A stretch of DNA of 64,000 bases from Terriglobia bacterium. Its GTDB lineage: Bacteria > Acidobacteriota > Terriglobia > Versatilivoradales > Versatilivoraceae. Location of the stretch: NCBI GenBank assembly GCA_965215235.1, contig OZ244053.1, forward strand, positions 2,471,192 to 2,535,191, written 5' to 3'. This document shows positions 25,555 to 38,655 of the stretch, piece after piece. The first letter of the stretch is position 1. The number at the start of each line of letters is the position of its first letter. The position numbers and the translations under genes are program-made. The notes below the pieces were generated by a model. It was not told the origin of the DNA. It saw only the letters and a program-made list of their open reading frames with translations, and did not search any database.

Positions 25555-27600
<2,046 letters not shown>

Positions 27601-27676
27601 AGAACAAGACGACAGCTTGAAACTTCAACTGGCTAGACTTATAATCTAGCCAAATTCATCCTGGGTGGAGGCGAGT

Positions 27677-27931
27677 ATGACCGATTGGCCGTTGCAAGAT
27701 GCCAAGAACCGTTTCAGCGCCGTTGTGGATGCCGCTCTCGCCGGGAGCCCGCAGCGGGTGACTCGACGGGGCAAACCCGCCGTGGTCATTCTGGCGGTGG
27801 ATGAGTACGAGCGTCTGCGCAATGCAAAGAGGGCGAACGCGCCGACACTTGCGGATTTGCTCCTCTCCATCCCCCAAGACGACAAAGAGTTCGAACGGCT
27901 TCGACTTCCGACCAGACGGGCCGATTTCTGA
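27677..27931 (+). CDS. vapB: Phd/YefM-family antitoxin
   Basis: 'MTDWPLQDAKNRFSAVVDAALAGSPQRVTRRGKPAVVILAVDEYERL' with GGAGG 7 nt upstream. Stop overlaps the vapC start. Confidence 0.75.
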   Translation: MTDWPLQDAKNRFSAVVDAALAGSPQRVTRRGKPAVVILAVDEYERLRNAKRANAPTLADLLLSIPQDDKEFERLRLPTRRADF

Positions 27932-28344
27932 TGTTTCTGATCGATACCGACGTACTATCGGCGCTCCGGAGGCGGAAGCGCAACCCCGATGTCGTCCGAT
28001 GGATGGAAGCTCAACGTACGTCGGACCTGTACATCAGCGTGGTGACCGTTGGCGAGATAGAGCGTGGAGTCGCACGGCAGCAGAGCCGCGACCGGACGTT
28101 CGCGCTGACGCTGGCCGCTTGGCTGGACGGTGTGCTGTCGCTGTACGGTGACCGCGTTCTCGGCGTTGACGTCTCCACGGCGCGCCGCTGGGGCCAACTG
28201 TCCGGCTCGCTTGGACACGAAAGCGCAGACTTGCTGATCGCCGCCACGGCGCTCGAACACGGTTTGACCCTGGTGACCCGGAATGTCGGGCGCTTCGAGC
28301 CGACGGGCGTCCCTGTGCTCAACCCGTTCACTGTTGAAGTATGA
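27931..28344 (+). CDS. vapC: VapC PIN-domain toxin
   Basis: 'MFLIDTDVLSALRR...' PIN domain with conserved D residues, 137 aa. Confidence 0.8.
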   Translation: MFLIDTDVLSALRRRKRNPDVVRWMEAQRTSDLYISVVTVGEIERGVARQQSRDRTFALTLAAWLDGVLSLYGDRVLGVDVSTARRWGQLSGSLGHESADLLIAATALEHGLTLVTRNVGRFEPTGVPVLNPFTVEV

Positions 28345-28382
28345 TTCACGATGCCTCAAATCGGCCGTTGGGAGGACGCACG

Positions 28383-28694
28383 ATGATCCCGGCAGTTGCC
28401 GAGCACGCCGCTGAACTGGAGTCGATCTGCCAACGCTACAGCGTGGCGCGGCTTGACCTGTTCGGCTCGGCGGCCACCGGCAAGTATCGACCGGAGGACA
28501 GCGACCTGGACTTTCTGGTGGAGTTCCAGGAGTTGCCCGCCGGAGGCCACGCAAGCGTCTATTTTGGCTTGCTGAAGTCCCTGGAGCGGCTCTTCTTTGG
28601 GCGGCCCGTGGACCTGGTGGTGGAATCGGCCATCAAGAACCCCTATTTCCGGGAATCGGTTGAAGAAACCAGGGTGATGATTTATGCGGCGTGA
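28383..28694 (+). CDS. MNT-type nucleotidyltransferase antitoxin (HepT/MNT module)
   Basis: 'LDLFGSAATGKYRPEDSDLDFLVEF' minimal nucleotidyltransferase motif (GS...D.D). GGGAGG upstream of ATG 28383. Confidence 0.7.
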   Translation: MIPAVAEHAAELESICQRYSVARLDLFGSAATGKYRPEDSDLDFLVEFQELPAGGHASVYFGLLKSLERLFFGRPVDLVVESAIKNPYFRESVEETRVMIYAA

Positions 28695-28965
28695 AGCCGG
28701 AAAATACCTATGGGACATACAGCGCGCCATCGGTTTGATCCAGGACTTTACCGATGGCAAGACCTTTGCCGACTACCAGTCCGACGTCATGATGCGCTCT
28801 GCTGTAGAACGGCAGTTTGAAATCATCGGTGAGGCCATGACCCAACTGGCAAAACTTGCCCCGGCCCTCGCCTCCCGGATAAGCGAATGTGAGCGGATTA
28901 TCGCTTTCCGCAACGTCCTGATTCACGTCTACGCTGATGTGGATGACATACGGTATGGGATGTAG
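28684..28965 (+). CDS. HepT (DUF86) toxin
   Basis: 'RNVLIHVY' R(x4)HxY motif. Overlaps the MNT gene by 11 nt. Confidence 0.7.
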   Translation: MRREAGKYLWDIQRAIGLIQDFTDGKTFADYQSDVMMRSAVERQFEIIGEAMTQLAKLAPALASRISECERIIAFRNVLIHVYADVDDIRYGM

Positions 28966-29020
28966 TGGAGAACAATCCGCCAACCCTCAGCCGCGAGATT
29001 GACGCCCTTCTGGAGGAAGA

Positions 29021-29266
29021 ATGACCGTCCAAGAACTTACCCGGTTGCTGGCAACCTATCCACCCGGCTTGCGCGTGGTCGTGAGCGGCTATGAAGAGGG
29101 CTACGACGACCTGTCGCCAGAACAGATATCGGTGGTGAAGATTTGCCTGAACACCGGGACCGAGTCCTGGGTGGGACAGCACGAAGAGCCAAACCTTCTG
29201 ACGGGAGGACTGCCCGACGACGCTGAGATCGTCGAGGCACTAAGTTTACGGCGAGTCTCTAATTGA
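29021..29266 (+). CDS. Hypothetical small protein (81 aa)
   Basis: ORF with GGAGGAAGAATG start context. No family recognised. Confidence 0.35.
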   Translation: MTVQELTRLLATYPPGLRVVVSGYEEGYDDLSPEQISVVKICLNTGTESWVGQHEEPNLLTGGLPDDAEIVEALSLRRVSN

Positions 29267-29270
29267 TGAA

Positions 29271-29379
29271 GATGACCCTCCTCACTGCCCAGTGGCGGGA
29301 GCAGCAGACAGAAGCCGTGAGGCTCAGTGCCGCCATTGCGGTCAATCTTAAGAGCCTTACCTTTGGAAAGCTCTGTTGA
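29271..29379 (+). pseudogene. Duplicated, diverged hsdM 3'-end remnant ('[37 protein letters not shown]')
   Basis: Aligns with the real hsdM C-terminus at 27496-27600 ('[34 protein letters not shown]'). The 20-nt 'CCCAGTGGCGGGAGCAGCAG' is identical. Confidence 0.65.
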
Positions 29380-29388
29380 GGACTACGC

Positions 29389-30396
29389 ATGAGCTCGGAA
29401 TTTCAAAAGCGGTTGACCCTCTTAAATGCCGATTACGAGCGTGTCGCTGGTTCTCCCTGTCGCCGTTTCTTTTGTCCAATTCTTTACAGGGACGAGGACA
29501 CTGAACTATGCCGCGCCCACGTGATCAATAGGTCATTCCGGAACTCTGACCGCTCGTGGACCATCCAACGGGCCGATGTCGATGCCTACTACGGCAGCCT
29601 GTTCGAAGCGGAGTTCCTGGCCATGCAGGAAAAAGACCGTCACCAAGCGGATGAAGCTCTGGCTGACAAAGACCTTGTTCGACAGCTAAAGCCGAAGATC
29701 GTCTTGGACGGTGAAGAAGTAGATTACTATTTCCCCCAAGGCCACGTGCCACCGGAGCATTCGGAGGCGACGTTATTCGCCTCAGGAAAAACTGCTCGAT
29801 TGGCACTTAAGCTACCACCAGCCGATATGCTGACCGTTCCAGATGGGAAATTAGAGATTCACATTGATAGGAATCTCCAACTCCCAGCGCTGGCATCACT
29901 TCTCAAGGTCGCGCACCTAACCCTGTTTCATCTGCTTGGATACCGATATGCGCTGTCGGCTAGTGGGCACTTTCTTGGCAAGACCGTGTTAGGTGATTTC
30001 TTTCTAAAGACTCAGAGCATGGGTCGGGCCTCTGTTCTTGTTCAGGCTGAGAGTCACTTTCAAGAATTCACCAACATGGTCCGTCCAATTCTCTCAATGT
30101 CGCCGTATTCTCAGGGCACTTTGACAGATCATTTTCTCTACCTCTGCATGAGAGGAAGTCAACCTTGGGCTCTTCAAGTCCTGATCCGAACCGCTGACCA
30201 CTTGTACGCTGTGATGGTACCCATCATAGACGAGAGCGAAGCGGCCGTTCGGTTTGTCGATTTCCTTAAATCGTCCTCCTCAGAGATTGAGATGAAGCTT
30301 GCTCGATGGAAAGGAGATGCTTGGGAGGTTTCTCCGAAATCGGAGATGCACGTTTGGCCGGAAGCGCTGTTCGATGCTGAATTGCCGACAACCTAA
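29389..30396 (+). CDS. Hypothetical protein (335 aa) embedded between hsdM and hsdS; N-terminal Cys/His cluster 'CRRFFCPILYRDEDTELCRAHVINRS'
   Basis: Strong ORF, lower GC than surroundings, start context 'GAGGACTACGCATG'. No recognised domain beyond a weak HNH-like C...C...C..H spacing. Confidence 0.6.
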   Translation: MSSEFQKRLTLLNADYERVAGSPCRRFFCPILYRDEDTELCRAHVINRSFRNSDRSWTIQRADVDAYYGSLFEAEFLAMQEKDRHQADEALADKDLVRQLKPKIVLDGEEVDYYFPQGHVPPEHSEATLFASGKTARLALKLPPADMLTVPDGKLEIHIDRNLQLPALASLLKVAHLTLFHLLGYRYALSASGHFLGKTVLGDFFLKTQSMGRASVLVQAESHFQEFTNMVRPILSMSPYSQGTLTDHFLYLCMRGSQPWALQVLIRTADHLYAVMVPIIDESEAAVRFVDFLKSSSSEIEMKLARWKGDAWEVSPKSEMHVWPEALFDAELPTT

Positions 30397-30407
30397 GGAG
30401 CTCGGGT

Positions 30408-31709
30408 ATGACGGGTGAGTGGCGCAAGGTGACGCTGGGCAGTGTGATTGACCTTAAACTCAGCAGTGTGGACAAGAAGTCGAAAGAAAGTGAGCGCTCT
30501 GTCCGTCTTTGCAACTACACGGATGTGTACAACAACAACTTTATTCATGGTGCCCTCGACTTCATGGCGGCAACCGCGACTGAGCGAGAGATCGCAAATT
30601 GCACACTGAAGGCTGGAGATGTTGTCATTACGAAAGATTCCGAAAAACATGACGACATCGGTGTTCCTGCACTGGTCCGAGAAGACATATCCAATCTGGT
30701 GTGTGGCTATCACTTGGCAATTCTTCGACCCTCCTCATCAGAAATTGACGGGGCCTATTTGTTTTACGCGCTGAGTGCGAGGGCAATGCAAGAACAGTTC
30801 CATTCATATGCAAACGGTGTTACTCGATTTGGATTGCGGAAGGCTGACATCGGTCTCGTTGAAGTCCCCCTTCCTCCCCTCCCCGAACAGCGTGCCATCG
30901 CCCACATCCTCGGTACGCTGGACGACAAGATCGAACTGAACCGGCGGATGAACGAGACGCTGGAAGAGATGGCGCGGGCGTTGTTCAAGTCCTGGTTCGT
31001 GGACTTCGATCCCGTCCGAGCCAAGATGGAGGGCCGCGACACGGGCCTGCCGCCGGACATCGCCGCCCTCTTCCCCGACCGCCTCGTGGACTCGGAACTG
31101 GGGGACATCCCGGAGGGGTGGGAGGTGAAGGCGCTACCTGAGACGATTGAAATCAACCCAGCACGGTCGCTACAAAAGGGTGAGGTTGCCCCATATCTCG
31201 ACATGGCGAATATGCCAACGAAGGGTCATACCCCCAATGCAGTGACTGCACGGCCCTTTGGCTCGGGTATGCGTTTTATCAACGGAGATACGCTTGTTGC
31301 ACGTATAACGCCGTGTCTTGAGAACGGCAAGACAGCCTACGTCGACTTCCTACAGGATGGCGAGGTCGGATGGGGGTCAACCGAGTATATCGTCATGAGA
31401 CCCAAACCTCCGCTCCCTGATGAGTTCGCATACTGTCTTGCGCGTAGTGTTGATTTCCGCGAGTTTGCAGTTCAGAACATGACCGGGACGAGCGGGCGGC
31501 AACGTGTCCCTGCCACCGCCATGTCAAACTACCAACTACCGCTTCCCGGTGGATTTGAGATCACGGAAGTATTTGGAGAGCTAGTTGAGCCTCTTTTTTC
31601 GCTTGCTTCTCAGAAAGCAGAGGAATCCCGTACCCTCGCCGCGTTGCGGGATACACTGCTGCCGAAGCTGGTGTCGGGGGAGTTATGGGTCGGGGATGTG
31701 AATAGTTAA
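30408..31709 (+). CDS. hsdS: Type I restriction-modification specificity subunit HsdS (two target recognition domains)
   Basis: Conserved central and C-terminal coiled-coil 'LPPLPEQRAIAHILGTLDDKIELNRRMNETLEEMARALFKSWFVDFDP' and '...LRDTLLPKLVSGEL'. Two variable TRDs. Confidence 0.85.
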   Translation: MTGEWRKVTLGSVIDLKLSSVDKKSKESERSVRLCNYTDVYNNNFIHGALDFMAATATEREIANCTLKAGDVVITKDSEKHDDIGVPALVREDISNLVCGYHLAILRPSSSEIDGAYLFYALSARAMQEQFHSYANGVTRFGLRKADIGLVEVPLPPLPEQRAIAHILGTLDDKIELNRRMNETLEEMARALFKSWFVDFDPVRAKMEGRDTGLPPDIAALFPDRLVDSELGDIPEGWEVKALPETIEINPARSLQKGEVAPYLDMANMPTKGHTPNAVTARPFGSGMRFINGDTLVARITPCLENGKTAYVDFLQDGEVGWGSTEYIVMRPKPPLPDEFAYCLARSVDFREFAVQNMTGTSGRQRVPATAMSNYQLPLPGGFEITEVFGELVEPLFSLASQKAEESRTLAALRDTLLPKLVSGELWVGDVNS

Positions 31710-31712
31710 CCA

Positions 31713-33002
31713 ATGGTCAGAACCTCTATGTATGAAGCTAATCGGCCCGTTCCCCTCGGAGAAATGGAGATCGAGTTCGTCATCGATGGACGATCCGTCC
31801 GAGCTCGGGCGAGAGCCGTCGAATACCTGCTCCCCCATCCGATCCTTGCCTTGGAGGTAAGCGATGTTCCTCGGGAACCTTGGTCTGTTGAGCCTGCGGC
31901 TGAACGGCCCAACGTCAAGATATTAAGCGCTCCCGTGATGTCTGAAGGACCTTCAGGTATCACCTTGGAGAATGGCATACAATTGGATGTACTTCCTTTT
32001 TCGTGGGCAGCTACTCAGCGGGATGCCACCCTCTACCTCGCGCAATCACCTTCTGTTGTCTTACAGACGGGCAGTCGCCTCGAGTCTTTACAATTCAATA
32101 TCCTCAACTTTTCGAGGGATTTGCCTTTCGGAACAGTTGCCTTAAACGCTGATCCATGGGCGATAACCATCTACTCGGTTCCAAGTCTTAACAAACTCAA
32201 GGAAACACTCAGAGCTGATGGAGGATACGCTGTCACTCATAACGGGGTAATCAAACTTCGGGGTGACGACACATTCTCTGTCGAAGAAGTTATGGATCTA
32301 CTCTATGGGTTGGATGATTTCCTTTCATTTGTGTGTGGATCCTACTGTTCGCTAACCAATGTGGTTGGCATTGAAAGTGAGGATAATGAAGCCTGGAAAC
32401 GATGGGGATCACATCATGTATCGTCGTGGGGTCACCACCGGTCTTGGTTTGACATTACTGTCGGTGGTGCGCTTTTGGAAATCTTTCCGGTCTTCTGGCA
32501 GGAGTACAAGAAAAACACGAAAACTCTGAGTAGGGTTTTGAAATTGTACGCACATAGCAACGAGACCTTTTCCATAGATGTGAGTTGTATTCTCAGCCAG
32601 ACTGCCCTTGAAATGCTTTCCTACCTAACGGTCGGTAGCCAGACAAACCAAGAAAAACCTGGTCAGTGGATAGAGAGAGCTCTCAATCAGGCTGGAATTC
32701 CCTTCGTAATTTCTCCCCAATGCAAGGATTTGGAGGGGTTCCGCCAGCAAAATCGGCTGACGCATGGGCCACACGCATTAGTTGAGATTCGGAACTCAAT
32801 CATTCACCGCAATGCAGGGCATGGCGATATTCCCTTCGATGTGTATCGCGAAGGGTCCCAACTGGGACTGTGGTACATAGAACTAATGCTATTGCAAAGA
32901 TTTGGTTATACGGGTAAATACGCAAATCGTCTGGAACCGGTGGGATTTGCTGGCCGTACCGAGCCTGTTCCATGGGTATCAGGCCAAGGAGTCAACCCAT
33001 GA
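31713..33002 (+). CDS. Hypothetical protein (429 aa) embedded between hsdS and hsdR
   Basis: Strong ORF starting 4 nt after the hsdS stop, low GC. No Walker A, so not PrrC-like. Its stop overlaps an hsdR-start remnant (ATGA). Confidence 0.6.
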   Translation: MVRTSMYEANRPVPLGEMEIEFVIDGRSVRARARAVEYLLPHPILALEVSDVPREPWSVEPAAERPNVKILSAPVMSEGPSGITLENGIQLDVLPFSWAATQRDATLYLAQSPSVVLQTGSRLESLQFNILNFSRDLPFGTVALNADPWAITIYSVPSLNKLKETLRADGGYAVTHNGVIKLRGDDTFSVEEVMDLLYGLDDFLSFVCGSYCSLTNVVGIESEDNEAWKRWGSHHVSSWGHHRSWFDITVGGALLEIFPVFWQEYKKNTKTLSRVLKLYAHSNETFSIDVSCILSQTALEMLSYLTVGSQTNQEKPGQWIERALNQAGIPFVISPQCKDLEGFRQQNRLTHGPHALVEIRNSIIHRNAGHGDIPFDVYREGSQLGLWYIELMLLQRFGYTGKYANRLEPVGFAGRTEPVPWVSGQGVNP

Positions 33003-33060: not shown

Positions 33061-33612
33061 TTGAGCAGCCGCTACGACCCGGAATGCCATCACCGGCGCT
33101 CCATCCGGCTGAAGGGGTACGACTACACACAGCCGGGTACCTATTTCGTCACTCTATGCACACGCGACCGCAAGTTTCTGTTCGGTGATATCGTGAACGG
33201 CGCAATGTGTTTGAACGATGCAGGGAGACTGATCGCCGATGCGTGGAAATGGCTGTCGATTCAGTACCCTTACGTGATGTTGGACGAATACGTCGTCATG
33301 CCTAATCATCTGCACGGCATCATTGTGATCGCCGACCATCGTAGGGGCGGTTCGCGAACCGCCCCTACCCCTATCCGTCGTAAGCCCTTGGGAGGTCTCA
33401 TAGGCGCATTCAAAACCACCGCAGCCAAGCACGTCAACCGTATCCGTAATACGCCCAATCAACCCATTTGGCAGCGCAACTATTACGAGCGCGTCATTCG
33501 AAATGAGAACGAACTGGACCGGGTTCGGGAGTACATAATCAGCAATCCAGCGCGGTGGGCTTTCGATTCCGAGAACCCGCTGGCCGCAATGCCCAAGGAA
33601 AAGGACGCATGA
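33061..33612 (+). mobile_element. REP-associated tyrosine transposase (RAYT; IS200/IS605 Y1 transposase-like)
   Basis: 'GTYFVTLCTRDR', 'MPNHLHGIIVI' (HuH motif) and 'QRNYYERVIRNE' (catalytic Tyr region). 183 aa, typical RAYT size. Confidence 0.8.
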
Positions 33613-33822: not shown

Positions 33823-34047
33823 GTGCGGCTGGATTTTGGTGGCACGCCACATCGCAACCCGGACGGGGAGCAAGCCGGGTCACCGCGCCTCCATCTTTAC
33901 CGCGAGGAATTTGGCGATAAGTGGGCGTTTACCGTCCCGAGCGACCGATTCACGAACTTGGACGATCCATGGCAAACGCTTGAAGACTTCATGCGGTTCT
34001 GCAACATCGTCGAACTGCCCGTCATCCGGAAGGGGCTGTTCACATGA
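33823..34047 (+). CDS. Hypothetical small protein (74 aa)
   Basis: ORF whose stop overlaps the next gene's start (ATGA). Confidence 0.25.
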
Positions 34048-34808
34048 TCGGAGAAATTCAATCGCTGCTGGATCAGTATTGGATCTGGTTGCGGGACAGG
34101 ACCAGCCTTCGCCAGATCGATGACTGGACAGAAATTACTACACCGTACCTGGACCGACACAACGACTGCCTCCAGATCTACGCTAAACGCGACAACGGAG
34201 GGTTCGTGCTGACGGACGACGGTTACGTTCTCGAAGATCTGGAGCAGTCCGGCTGCAAGATCGACAGCGCCAAGCGCCAAGCATTGTTCAGGACGACGCT
34301 CAACGGTTTCGGCGTGAAGGTCAACGAGAAGGCGCTCGAAGTGCGGGCGTCGCCGGACAATTTCGCGCTGCGAAAGCACAATCTTGTGCAGGCGATGCTC
34401 GCCGTCAACGATCTCTTCTACTTGGCATCGTCCACAATCGCCAGCTTGTTCCATGAAGACGTGGTGGCTTGGCTCGATCTCTCCGACATCCGGTATACGC
34501 CCAGCGTGAAGTTCACGGGCAAGAGCGGCTATGATCATCGATTCGATTTCGTCATACCGAAGTCGAGAGTCCAGCCGGAGCGTGTACTGCGCGCCATCAA
34601 CCGCCCGAGCCGTGACACCGCGCAGGCGATGGCGTTCTCCTGGGTCGACATCAGGGAGGTGCGTTCTCTGGAATCCCGCGCCTATGCGATCCTGAACGAC
34701 TCGGACCAACCAATCTCGGCGAGCGTGCTGGACGCGATGCGCAGCTACGACGTGCATCCGGTCCCATGGTCGGGCCGAGATGAAGCGCGCGAGGAACTCG
34801 CCGCGTGA
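34044..34808 (+). CDS. DUF1828/DUF1829-like hypothetical protein
   Basis: '[39 protein letters not shown]' resembles the DUF1828 N-terminal signature. The C-terminal half is DUF1829-like. This is a family call from memory. Confidence 0.45.
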
Positions 34809-35526: not shown

Positions 35527-38500
35527 ATGACCACCCTCACCGAAGCCGACGTCGAGCAAGCGGCCCTGGACTGGCTGGAGGGCCTCGGCTGGCGGCTGGC
35601 CCGCGGGCCGGATATCGCCCCCGATACTCTTGCCGCGGAGCGCACCGACTACGGGCAAGTGGTGTTGGAGCGGCGGCTGCGGGATGCCCTGGCCGAGTTG
35701 AATCCCGATCTCCCCGCCGGGGCGCTGGACGACGCCTTTCGCAGGTTGACCCGCCCGGAGGGGGCGACGCTGGAAGCCCGCAACCGCGCCTTTCACCGGA
35801 TGCTGGTGGAGGGTGTGACGGTCGAATACCGCACCGATGCCGGCGCAATCCGCGGGGCGCAGGCGCGGGTCATCGACTTCGAAGATTCTAGCAACAACGA
35901 CTGGCTGGCGGTCAACCAGTTCACCGTCAGCGAGAGCAGGAACACCCGCAGGCCCGACGTCGTGCTGTTTGTCAACGGTCTGCCCCTGGGCGTCATCGAG
36001 CTCAAGAACCCGGCGGACGAAGACGCCACCCTCTGGACCGCTTGGCAACAACTACAGACCTACAAGGTCGAGTTGCCTTCGCTGTTCTCCATGAACGAGC
36101 TGCTCATCGTCTCCGACGGGACGCAGGCCCGCATCGGCACGCTCACCGCCGGGCGGGAGTGGTTCAAGCCCTGGCGCACCATATCGGGCGAAGCTCTGGC
36201 CGACCCGCACATGCCCGAACTCCAGGTGATGCTGGAAGGCGTCTGCGCTCACGAGCGGTTCCTGGCTATCGCCCGCGACTTCACCGTGTTCGAGGACGGC
36301 GGCGGCGGGGCGCTGGTCAAGAAGATGACCGGCTATCACCAGTTCCACGCGGTGCGGGTGGCGGTGGCGGAGACTTTGCGGGCATCCGAGTTACAGCGCA
36401 TCGCCGATAAGTCCGGCAGATACGAGTCGGGCCGCAAGCCGGGCGGCGACCCGGGCGACCACCGCATCGGCGTGGTCTGGCACACTCAGGGATCGGGCAA
36501 GAGCCTGACCATGGCCTTCTACGCCGGAGCCATCATCCGCGAGCCGGCCATGGAGAACCCCACCATCGTCGTGCTGACCGACCGCAACGACCTGGACGAT
36601 CAGCTTTTCGGTACCTTCTCCCGCTGCCAGGACCTCTTGCGCCAGCCACCCGTGCAGGCCGAGAGCCGGGCCGACCTGCGCCGCAAGCTCGCCGTCGCAT
36701 CGGGCGGCGTGGTGTTCACCACCATCCAGAAGTTCTTCCCCGAGGAGACAGGAGATATCTACCCTGCACTCTCCAACCGTCGCAACGTCGTGGTCATTGC
36801 CGACGAGGCCCATCGCAGCCAGTACGACTTCATCGACGGGTTCGCGCGCCACATGCGCGACGCGCTGCCGCATGCCTCCTTCGTTGGTTTCACCGGCACG
36901 CCGATCGAATTGCGGGACGCCAACACCCGGGCCGTGTTCGGCGACTACATCAGCATCTACGACGTCCGGCGTTCGGTCGAGGACGGGGCCACGGTGCCCA
37001 TCCACTACGAGAGCCGTCTTGCCAGGCTGGCCCTGGACGAGAGCGAACGACCGACCATCGACACGGAGTTCGAGGAGGCCACCGAGGGCGAGGAGGTGGA
37101 GCGCAAGGAGAAGCTCAAGATCAGATGGGCGCAACTGGAGGCCGTCGTCGGCGCGGAGAAGCGGCTGAAGCGGGTGGCCGAGGATATCGCGGCCCATTTC
37201 GAGAAAAGGCTCGAAGTCCTTGACGGCAAGGCGATGGTGGCGTGCATGAGTCGGCGCATCTGCGTCGAGTTGTACCGGGAGCTCGTCCGATTGCGTCCCG
37301 ACTGGCGCGACGAGGACGACGACAGGGGAAGCATCAAGGTGGTGATGACCGGCGCCGCCTCCGACCCGCCTGAGTGGCAGGCGCACATCCGCAACAAACC
37401 GCGGCGTGAGGCTCTGGCGAAACGTTTCCGAGACCCCGAAGACCCGCTCCGGGTCGTGCTGGTGCGCGACATGTGGCTGACCGGCTTCGATGCGCCCAGC
37501 CTGCACACCATGTACGTGGACAAGCCGATGCGCGGTCACGGGCTGATGCAGGCCATCGCCCGGGTCAACCGGGTGTTTCGGGACAAGCCGGGCGGTCTGG
37601 TGGTGGATTACCTCGGCTTGGCTCCTGAATTGAAACGCGCGCTGGCGACTTACACCGAAAGCGGCGGCGCGGGCCGAACAGCCCTCGATCAGTCGGAGGC
37701 GGTGGCGGTGATGATCGAGAAGTACGAAATCTGCCGCGGCCTGTTCCACGGCTTCGACTGGTCGAAGTGGATCGCCGGCGCGCCGGTGGAGCGGCTGGGC
37801 CTGCTGCCGGCCGCGCAAGAGCACGTCCTGGCGCAGGAGAACGGCAAGGATCGTTGCCTGCACGCAGTGCGCGAACTGTCTCAAGCCTTCGCGCTGGCCG
37901 TCCCGCACGAGGACGCGCTGCGCATCCGCGACGACGTGGCCTTCTTTCAGGCAGTGAGCGGCAGCCTCGCCAAACGCGCTCCCGGTGAGACGCGGCCCGA
38001 AGAAGAGTTGGACCATGCGCTGCGCCAGATTGTCTCGCGCGCGGTGGCCTCCGAAGGCGTCATCGACATTTTCGCCGCCGCCGGGCTGAAGAAGCCCGAC
38101 ATCTCGATCCTCTCCGATGACTTCCTGGCCGAGGTGCGCGGCATTCCCCAGCCCAACCTGGCCGTCGAGCTGCTGCGGAAGCTGCTGAGGGGCGAGCTGG
38201 CTGCGCGCCGAAAGAAGAACGTCGTCCAGGCGAGATCTTTCGCCGAGATGCTGGAGCAAGCCCTCCGCCGCTATCAGAACCGCGCCGTCGAAGCTGCGCA
38301 GGTGATCGAAGAGTTGATCCAACTGGCCCGGGACCTCCGCGAGGCCAACGCCCGCGGCGAAGAGCTCGGGCTGTCGGAAGACGAGCTGGCTTTCTACGAC
38401 GCGCTGGAGACCAACGACAGCGCGGTCCGGGTGCTCGGCGATGAAACGCTCCGCGCCATCGCCCGCCAACTGGTTGAAACCGTCCGCAACAACGTCACCG

Positions 38501-38655
38501 TCGACTGGACGCTGCGCGAGAACGTGCGCGCCCACCTCCGCGTACTGGTCAAGCGCATACTGCGCAAGCACGGCTACCCGCCGGACAAGCAGGAGAAAGC
38601 AACGCTGACCGTTCTGGAGCAAGCCGAGGCCCTGTCCGCCGGCTGGGCTGTCTGA
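35527..38655 (+). CDS. hsdR: Type I restriction enzyme R subunit HsdR
   Basis: '[22 protein letters not shown]' N-terminus. SF2 helicase motifs ([26 protein letters not shown]). 1042 aa. Confidence 0.9.

Follow-up and report, generated by a model that had tools for sequence, protein, structure and literature searches.

Gene X inside a Type I restriction-modification operon

The stretch of DNA analysed here, referred to as the window, comprises 64,000 nucleotides (nt) of contig OZ244053.1 (positions 2,471,192 to 2,535,191; assembly GCA_965215235.1) from a Terriglobia bacterium and carries a Type I restriction-modification (R-M) operon in which an uncharacterised gene, here called gene X, is embedded. 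The operon reads on the plus strand in the order hsdM, Phd/YefM-PIN, MNT-HepT, an 81-amino-acid (aa) open reading frame (ORF), X, hsdS, a 429-aa ORF (orf429), a 183-aa ORF, a PDC-M24A fragment followed by PDC-M24B, and hsdR. The features that bear directly on X are the following.

25555-27600, plus strand: hsdM, Type I methyltransferase subunit (Pfam N6_Mtase, E = 7.7e-99; HsdM_N, E = 1.6e-26; DUF559, E = 4e-33)
29269-29379, plus strand: relic of an hsdM 3' end (33 matched codons and a stop), 9 nt ahead of the X ATG
29389-30396, plus strand: gene X, an intact ATG-to-TAA ORF of 335 aa from an uncharacterised family with a single architecture
30394-30410, plus strand: X-hsdS junction, where the TAA of X (30394-30396) overlaps the hsdS ribosome-binding site AAGGAG (30395-30400) and the hsdS ATG begins at 30408
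30408-31709, plus strand: hsdS, Type I specificity subunit (Pfam Methylase_S, E = 2.1e-20), in a common low-GC block with X

A preliminary description of this DNA, made from the sequence alone, had presented X as a strong ORF in a lower-GC block between hsdM and hsdS. Both the ORF, which has a GAGGA ribosome-binding site 6-7 nt before its ATG, and the block are borne out: GC content at third codon positions (GC3) is 0.55 in X, 0.61 in hsdS and 0.49, the lowest value of the block, in orf429, versus 0.82 in hsdM and 0.86 in hsdR (GC of the whole window is 59%). The placement holds in part, as X is flanked by hsdM and hsdS but hsdM is not adjacent; two toxin-antitoxin pairs (Phd/PIN and MNT/HepT) and the 81-aa ORF lie between hsdM and X.

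Because X has its stop codon within the ribosome-binding site of hsdS, co-transcription of the two genes is implied and translational coupling is probable. An identical TAAGGAGCT junction is found in a Latescibacterota locus (L001) whose X protein is 61% identical to that of the window; there, the gaps between hsdM and X and between X and hsdS are both 12 nt. The relic upstream of X in the window corresponds to HsdM residues 647-679 (73% identity, E = 3.6e-11 by tblastn) and shares 74% nucleotide identity with the 3' end of the resident hsdM across 81 nt. Given this relic and the GC3 break, X, hsdS and probably orf429 appear to derive from an ancestral hsdM-X-hsdS operon, and the arrangement indicates that they would have been acquired from it by recombination within hsdM.

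A previously undescribed protein family

A homology search of a collection of 5.8 billion proteins returned 256 relatives of X, none of which has a Pfam domain and all of which are annotated at most as 'hypothetical protein'. When 1.84 billion cluster representatives (50% identity) were searched with a profile, 709 matched at E ≤ 0.001 and 587 at E ≤ 1e-10. Family members are nearly always 320-350 aa long, with about 330 aa being typical, and there are no fusions among the 709 clusters.

The preliminary description could assign X to no family, and we came to the same result: searches of Pfam, NCBIfam, PADLOC and PHROGs gave no match to X, no Pfam family was found at E up to 10 using 51 family members, and none of the 5027 models of PADLOC-DB v2 matched at E up to 1. 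The same PADLOC searches picked up the neighbouring PDC-M24A/B, BrxB/C, PglX, PglZ and BrxL. Against sequence profiles of the Protein Data Bank (PDB), the full-length X profile gave only noise (E > 0.5) and an N-terminal profile gave nothing, and starting the search from the most divergent branch (a Lacipirellula protein) brought up only further unannotated proteins of about 340 aa. The AlphaFold2 (AF2) model of X is compact, with a predicted local distance difference test score (pLDDT) of 89.8 and a predicted template modelling score (pTM) of 0.88; structural comparison with PDB and BFVD found no neighbour for it. Confident homology to a housekeeping family, which the preliminary description had named as counting against a defence role, did not come to light in any of these family or fold searches. 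The X family is thus a previously undescribed one that is real and under constraint, as seen from its constant length, ten universal charged or polar residues and confident model.

Conserved residues and the zinc-ribbon and HNH readings

Residue conservation was read from alignments of 49-51 family members. The universal residues are D35, H44, Q60, R61, D63, D65, E73, K141, K173 and D247, together with structural Gly, Pro and aromatic positions, and this pattern suggests an enzyme active site. Two segments of the gene carry conserved blocks.

29473-29607, plus strand: N-terminal core of X, C29 to E73, with C29, D35, H44, (N47), Q60, R61, D63, D65 and E73; strand-strand-helix
29905-29994, plus strand: second conserved block of X, K173 to G202 (K173-x-A-H-L-T-x-F...G-Y...S..G...G....L-G); helical

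In the AF2 model, one strand (residues 40-44) ends in H44, a second (57-61, W-T-V-Q-R) follows, and a helix (62-81) opens with D63-V-D65. The second block is modelled as helices 164-183, 185-188 and 191-208, which probably pack against the N-terminal core.

According to the preliminary description, the N-terminus has a Cys/His cluster with C-x4-C-x11-C-x2-H spacing reminiscent of a zinc ribbon or an HNH-like nuclease core. The string CRRFFCPILYRDEDTELCRAHVINRS does exist in the window, but the spacing is not a property of the family. C24 is present in one of 49 members, that of the window (38 of the 49 have Phe), while C29 is found in 49/49, C41 in 46/49 and H44 in all 48 ungapped sequences. 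Only two of the four proposed ligands (C29 and H44) are therefore universal. Moreover, residues 1-101 predicted alone reach a pLDDT of 50 and adopt no fold without the rest of the protein, so the N-terminus of X does not constitute an independent zinc-ribbon or HNH module. These results bear on one alternative account of X, namely that it binds zinc via a Cys3His cluster and thereby interferes with restriction. The motif is present in the window sequence and C29, C41 and H44 are highly conserved, but with C24 confined to the window and C41 replaced by Ile in two divergent members there is no conserved four-ligand site, and the N-terminal segment is not a fold of its own.

The HNH half of the proposal has a mixed outcome. 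The strand-strand-helix topology of the AF2 model is compatible with an HNH-like core: H44 stands at the end of a strand, as the His of a beta-beta-alpha unit should, and strand 57-61 and helix 62-81 supply the remainder of such a unit in the predicted structure. At the sequence level, the similarity is not significant. An HNH_2 consensus was used to gather 86 proteins, 84 of them labelled PF13391, of which 45 were aligned as a profile and compared with X by hhalign. The resulting probability was 0.4-0.9% (P = 0.058-0.16, not significant). In the aligned register, C29 faces C, L-C-R-A-H-V-I-N faces L-x-A-x-H-I-x-P, Q-R-a-D-V-D faces L-r-A-d-l-(H) and F-E faces F-D. HNH_2 residues N56 and G57, invariant or nearly so in its alignment, stand opposite Ser-Trp or a gap in X, D65 is aligned with the helix His of HNH_2, and from the His-x-x-Phe-Asp motif only Phe-Asp is kept, as Phe-Glu. 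An hmmscan of 51 members found no HNH family at E up to 10, the PDB structure search did not return the solved HNH_2 enzymes 6ghs (TagI) and 6yex, and a regular-expression search of the collected sequences for HNH_2-like or DUF4238-like ORFs gave nothing. That X may be a nuclease is thus still a conjecture drawn from the topology of its predicted structure.

Linkage to methylation-based systems

We assembled 61 X loci from the genome collection, with gene calls made as greedy ORF calls. The loci come from Latescibacterota, Binatia, Chloroflexota, Gemmatimonadota, Acidobacteriota, Planctomycetota, Desulfobacterota, Verrucomicrobiota, Bacteroidota and a Candidate Phyla Radiation (CPR) genome. 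In 14 of 55 loci, the 2.5 kb downstream of X contain the start of a methylation-system gene, which in each case has the orientation of X. Each of the seven other 2.5-kb bins around X contains such a gene in 0-4 loci. R-M genes were detected using seed proteins from the same loci, and HsdS-like genes were probably undercounted.

Five architectures are represented among the partners. The co-occurrence with hsdM and hsdS, which the preliminary description had named as a point to check, extends to other genomes, with Type I partners in L001, L005, L007 and L025 besides the window. Other loci have an MmeI-family (Type IIL/IIG) partner (L003/L067), an ISP-like fusion of methyltransferase and specificity parts (L004, L014 and L063), a Type III partner (L034/L065), or a type 1 bacteriophage exclusion (BREX) system in which X is directly upstream of pglX (L040, L046-L048 and L061). 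The gene order is hsdM-X-hsdS-(HNH_5 protein)-hsdR in L005 and hsdM-X-hsdS-(Abi_C protein) in L001; in these two loci and the window, the slot after hsdS varies and X is retained. X thus shows the recurrent and oriented linkage to R-M and BREX systems of unrelated genomes that is expected of a restriction-linked accessory gene.

In a neighbour-joining tree, linkage is concentrated in the clade of the window: at least 10 of its 17 members show it, with partner systems that differ among close relatives. Members linked to BREX group in a clade of their own, and the soil-Acidobacteria clades are mostly unlinked.

The BREX loci carry X within a four-gene insert between brxC and pglX (L047, 6869-11014; also L040, L046 and L048), which consists of genes for an RmrA-like helix-turn-helix (HTH)-Peptidase_M78 protein, a PDC-S70-like 173-aa protein, a 338-aa protein and X. 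We compared the 338-aa gene with X as a possible paralogue, and it is not one. The ISP-like partner is a 1022-aa protein (L063, 9165-14146; equivalents in L004, L014 and L023) that matches only the C-terminal coupler-methyltransferase-specificity part of the 1646-aa Type ISP model; no nuclease or helicase part was recognised in it, and the gene after it encodes a conserved protein of some 600 aa.

The position of X immediately upstream of methyltransferase-bearing genes might reflect a regulatory function, in which X would control the expression or activity of the neighbouring system, for example by delaying restriction after transfer, and would not attack nucleic acid itself. X is consistently upstream of and co-oriented with such genes, and RptR and C-proteins hold similar positions (PMC12255303). 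RptR itself, an R-M-proximal repressor, was rejected as an identity for X on the ground that it is a small transcription factor. No HTH or other DNA-binding domain was detected in X, however, its universal residues are mainly acidic plus His and Lys and so are more typical of catalysis than of DNA reading, the BREX loci already have a separate HTH-M78 regulator, and most family members have no nearby system to regulate. We regard a regulator or establishment factor as improbable.

The effectors PrrC and RonA are released by anti-restriction proteins. By analogy with PrrC and EcoprrI, and with RonA and HsdMS, X might be a guard or abortive-infection effector that stays inactive while HsdMS, PglX or the like is intact and is unleashed by an anti-restriction protein such as a DNA mimic. 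This model is favoured by the tight and probably translational coupling of X to hsdS and by its location between hsdM and hsdS in three loci. It would also fit the observations that X always stands beside a methyltransferase or specificity gene and not a nuclease gene, that it is linked to both Type I and BREX systems, as was reported for Ronin (10.1101/2023.04.06.535777), and that PARIS-like genes occur in the same islands. On the other hand, five partner architectures are hard to reconcile with docking onto one specific complex, about 75% of X members have no such neighbour, and X lacks an ATPase or sensor domain like those of PrrC or PARIS. A guard function seems unlikely.

Other neighbourhoods and distribution

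The 116 nearest neighbours of X belong to 87 Pfam families, of which N6-adenine methyltransferases of R-M systems are the commonest category. Neither BLAST clustering nor all-against-all phmmer comparison of three genes on each side identified an obligate partner. The other contexts of X include defence islands with AAA_15 plus DUF4276, SIR2, ThsB-TIR, GmrSD_N, Pnkp-Hen1 with an AAA_13 ATPase, HipA and many toxin-antitoxin pairs, so that X is found outside the window both with R-M systems and with other defence systems, the two settings in which the preliminary description had expected to see it again. In one island (L073, 8001-17014), X is directly upstream of a Hen1-Pnkp RNA-repair pair and near an AAA_13 ATPase gene of PrrC/RloC type and a GmrSD_N gene.

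This diversity of neighbours could also mean that X is a passenger or selfish gene, that is, a gene of unrelated function or a decaying mobile-element gene, whose linkage to R-M systems is a hotspot effect. The wide range of neighbouring families, housekeeping genes included, would fit such a gene, as would the transposases and integrases that sometimes adjoin X and the existence of truncated copies. The enrichment of methylation-system genes is nevertheless directional and strand-specific (14 loci versus 0-4 per other bin), whereas symmetry would be expected of a simple island effect. Distant genomes share the X-hsdS coupling junction, X is single-copy per genome, and there are no recurring terminal repeats and no recurring partner transposase. 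We find this account rather unlikely.

X is host-side, and mobile elements are practically free of it: searches of 50,697 phage records, of 72,556 plasmids and of PHROGs gave no match, and 2.9 million viral contigs contained a single truncated remnant of 89 aa. The anti-restriction alternative raised in the preliminary description is unlikely on this evidence, since phages and plasmids are where anti-restriction genes reside, and X is moreover co-transcribed with the host's own R-M genes. Combined with the zinc-binding cluster discussed above, it becomes a very remote prospect. The other role suggested there, an R-M-linked accessory in phage defence, gains support from the position of X, which directly precedes methylation-based immunity genes of five architectures in the same orientation, and from its occurrence in defence islands elsewhere.

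Proposed function of X

We consider that X is best explained as a host-side, self-contained accessory defence enzyme of immunity against foreign DNA, with a probability of roughly 45%. What is observed is that the gene is intact, conserved, embedded in an operon, linked in position to methylation systems and absent from the phages and plasmids searched; its enzymatic nature, its nuclease chemistry and its defence role are what we infer. The self-contained form of this model is favoured because most family members stand alone and because the partner systems vary.

X would be a soluble single-unit enzyme, and a metal-dependent nuclease with a His-Me-like site is its most likely chemistry, to which we give about one chance in three. 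In such an enzyme, the active site would have H44 at the end of a beta-strand and D63 and D65 at the start of the next helix, in a geometry resembling that of His-Me fingers, with D35, Q60, R61, E73, K141, K173 and D247 as supporting residues. H44, N47, D63 and D65 are all placed as this geometry would lead one to expect in the AF2 topology. Functionally, X would provide an additional layer of defence alongside Type I, IIL, ISP-like, III and BREX systems. Like a type IV enzyme, it might cleave DNA that they are unable to restrict; alternatively, it might fire once the partner methylation systems are blocked. In the window, X would have arrived together with hsdS, and probably with the ApeA-like gene orf429, as a foreign low-GC module of which a stub of the donor hsdM remains.

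Several observations weigh against this interpretation. No homology or experiment ties X to any activity, the HNH_2 similarity has a probability below 1%, the Asn-Gly pair of HNH_2 is without a counterpart, and X has no equivalent of the metal-binding His. About three quarters of the X loci have no methylation system nearby. The linkage that does exist is concentrated in two clades and amounts to some 6-7 independent arrangements, the R-M seeds came from the loci that were counted, and the figure of 14/55 is a comparison with other bins around X and not with a genome-wide background. Some neighbours of X are housekeeping genes (gyrB, aroA and selA), and defence islands also gather unrelated passengers.

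A bolder reading, which we hold to be fairly improbable, is that X is the founding member of a novel class of immune enzymes, of unsolved fold, that can plug into any methylation-based system of self/non-self recognition (Type I, IIL, ISP-like, III or BREX). Such an enzyme might sense a methyltransferase or specificity module that has been disabled by phage anti-restriction factors, or it might provide a nuclease in trans to nuclease-less fusions, for example the 1022-aa ISP-like proteins or PglX.

Comparison with known systems

The nesting of defence genes in R-M or BREX operons is a familiar phenomenon, with precedents in Type I or BREX loci that include PrrC (PMC3458546), Ronin (10.1101/2023.04.06.535777), TgvAB (PMC11411939) and DarTG2 (PMC12255303). 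The X family, in turn, is absent from all libraries searched and has no relative with a solved fold.

TgvAB, a GmrSD-like type IV system in the Type I R-M cluster of Vibrio cholerae VPI-2, is embedded in such a cluster in 79 of its 1,341 occurrences (PMC11411939). Like TgvAB, X is nested in a Type I operon yet commoner outside (14/55 loci have a downstream methylation-system gene), and it is presumed to complement methylation-based restriction. Unlike TgvAB and GmrSD, X has neither DUF262 (GmrSD_N) nor DUF1524, nor any Pfam or PADLOC match, and it is a single protein with what the model suggests to be a novel fold.

PrrC combines an ABC-ATPase with an anticodon nuclease and occurs only in linkage with R-M (PMC3458546), and RonA of Ronin is a 61-aa membrane peptide that is always linked to hsdM/hsdS (10.1101/2023.04.06.535777). 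X resembles both in being embedded in, and probably co-expressed with, hsdM/hsdS. It differs from PrrC and RloC in that its 335 aa contain no match to an AAA_13 ABC-type ATPase or a ribonuclease domain and its alignment shows no P-loop motif; in being mostly unlinked to R-M, X is unlike PrrC and more like RloC. It differs from RonA in being a globular, soluble protein of 335 aa that is mostly not linked to hsd genes.

The model of X shares with HNH_2 His-Me-finger nucleases (PF13391; solved examples are 6ghs, the restriction endonuclease TagI, and 6yex, an HNH endonuclease) an invariant His at a strand end, a second strand and a helix with conserved acidic and aromatic residues, and its size falls within the range of about 310-335 aa seen in stand-alone modification-dependent enzymes. 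Unlike HNH_2, it lacks the invariant Asn-Gly and the helix His, and the alignment probability is below 1%. The motif is N-terminal in X but C-terminal in the solved HNH_2 enzymes (189-308 in 6yex, 196-271 in TagI).

X takes the same kind of slot as PARIS (AriA/AriB), either between brxC and pglX or inside hsd operons, and an AAA_15 plus DUF4276 pair shares an island with X in L067. In contrast to PARIS, X is a single gene without ATPase or Toprim domains. In contrast to Ocr and ArdA-like anti-restriction proteins, X is absent from the phage records and plasmids searched.

Defence genes nested in this way have repeatedly proved to be functional second immune layers, as with PrrC, PARIS, Ronin, TgvAB and DarTG. 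On its sequence and setting, X appears to be a good candidate for a new anti-phage accessory enzyme, a status it shares with many comparable candidates on record. The family is widespread, extending over at least 10 phyla and including the cultured strains Lacipirellula limnantheis I41 and Desulfoluna butyratoxydans MSL71. Its directional link to five methylation-based systems raises the question of whether methylation-based immunity has recruited a generic accessory activity, and a second question is which reaction the ten-residue conserved site of X catalyses. If X is indeed a nuclease, it might represent a new enzyme scaffold.

Other genes of the operon

The Type I operon of the window has turned into a scaffold for several nested cassettes. 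Besides the genes introduced above, it contains the following.

27665-28965, plus strand: toxin-antitoxin cassettes between hsdM and X (Phd/YefM-PIN, 27665-28344; MNT-HepT, 28341-28965; assigned by Pfam)
29021-29266, plus strand: 81-aa ORF, no match in Pfam, NCBIfam or PADLOC
31713-33002, plus strand: orf429 (429 aa), starting 4 nt after hsdS
35527-38655, plus strand: hsdR, Type I restriction subunit, a 1042-aa ORF that closes the operon scaffold

HsdM of the window has an in-frame insertion of about 147 aa (26773-27213) with a DUF559 (Vsr-like endonuclease) domain (Pfam E = 4e-33), located between the catalytic domain and the C-terminal region. The HsdM proteins of L001 and L005 align collinearly with that of the window except for this insertion, which they lack.

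The toxin-antitoxin cassettes now lie between the resident hsdM and the hsdM relic. Just upstream of phd, at 27617-27645, is the sole sigma-70-like promoter match in the 25-39 kb region (11/12 consensus positions), and the inserted cassette may thus bring its own promoter into the operon. The hepT gene is frameshifted: the annotated frame ends at 28965, and the canonical HepT C-terminus (VWDVVENNPPTLSREIDALLEEE) runs on in another frame to 29024, where its TGA overlaps the ATG of the 81-aa ORF (ATGA; region 28684-29024). The frameshift could reflect a pseudogene or a sequencing error. A homologue of the 81-aa ORF (L025, 17526-17744; phmmer E = 2e-16) is likewise located just upstream of hsdS in a Type I locus, and this ORF may be a second small restriction-linked gene.

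Downstream of hsdS, orf429 matches Pfam ApeA_NTD1 with E = 0.0019, which is under the curated cut-off, and has an R-x4-H motif (RNSIIH) at residue 360. It has no PADLOC match. On these features, orf429 may be a candidate ApeA-like HEPN defence protein. The 183-aa ORF (33061-33612) has no Pfam match and has a weak homologue (E = 6e-7) directly upstream of X in L015 (8939-9766); its HLHGII motif presumably recalls REP-associated tyrosine transposases.

Nested before hsdR (33823-34808) are a PDC-M24A fragment, which covers profile positions 73-145 of 146, and an intact PDC-M24B (E = 1.7e-105). The same PDC-M24A/B candidate defence pair is found about 9 kb downstream of X in L003/L067. The hsdR of the window matches its homologues in L005, L007 and L037 with E-values from 0 to 1e-107.

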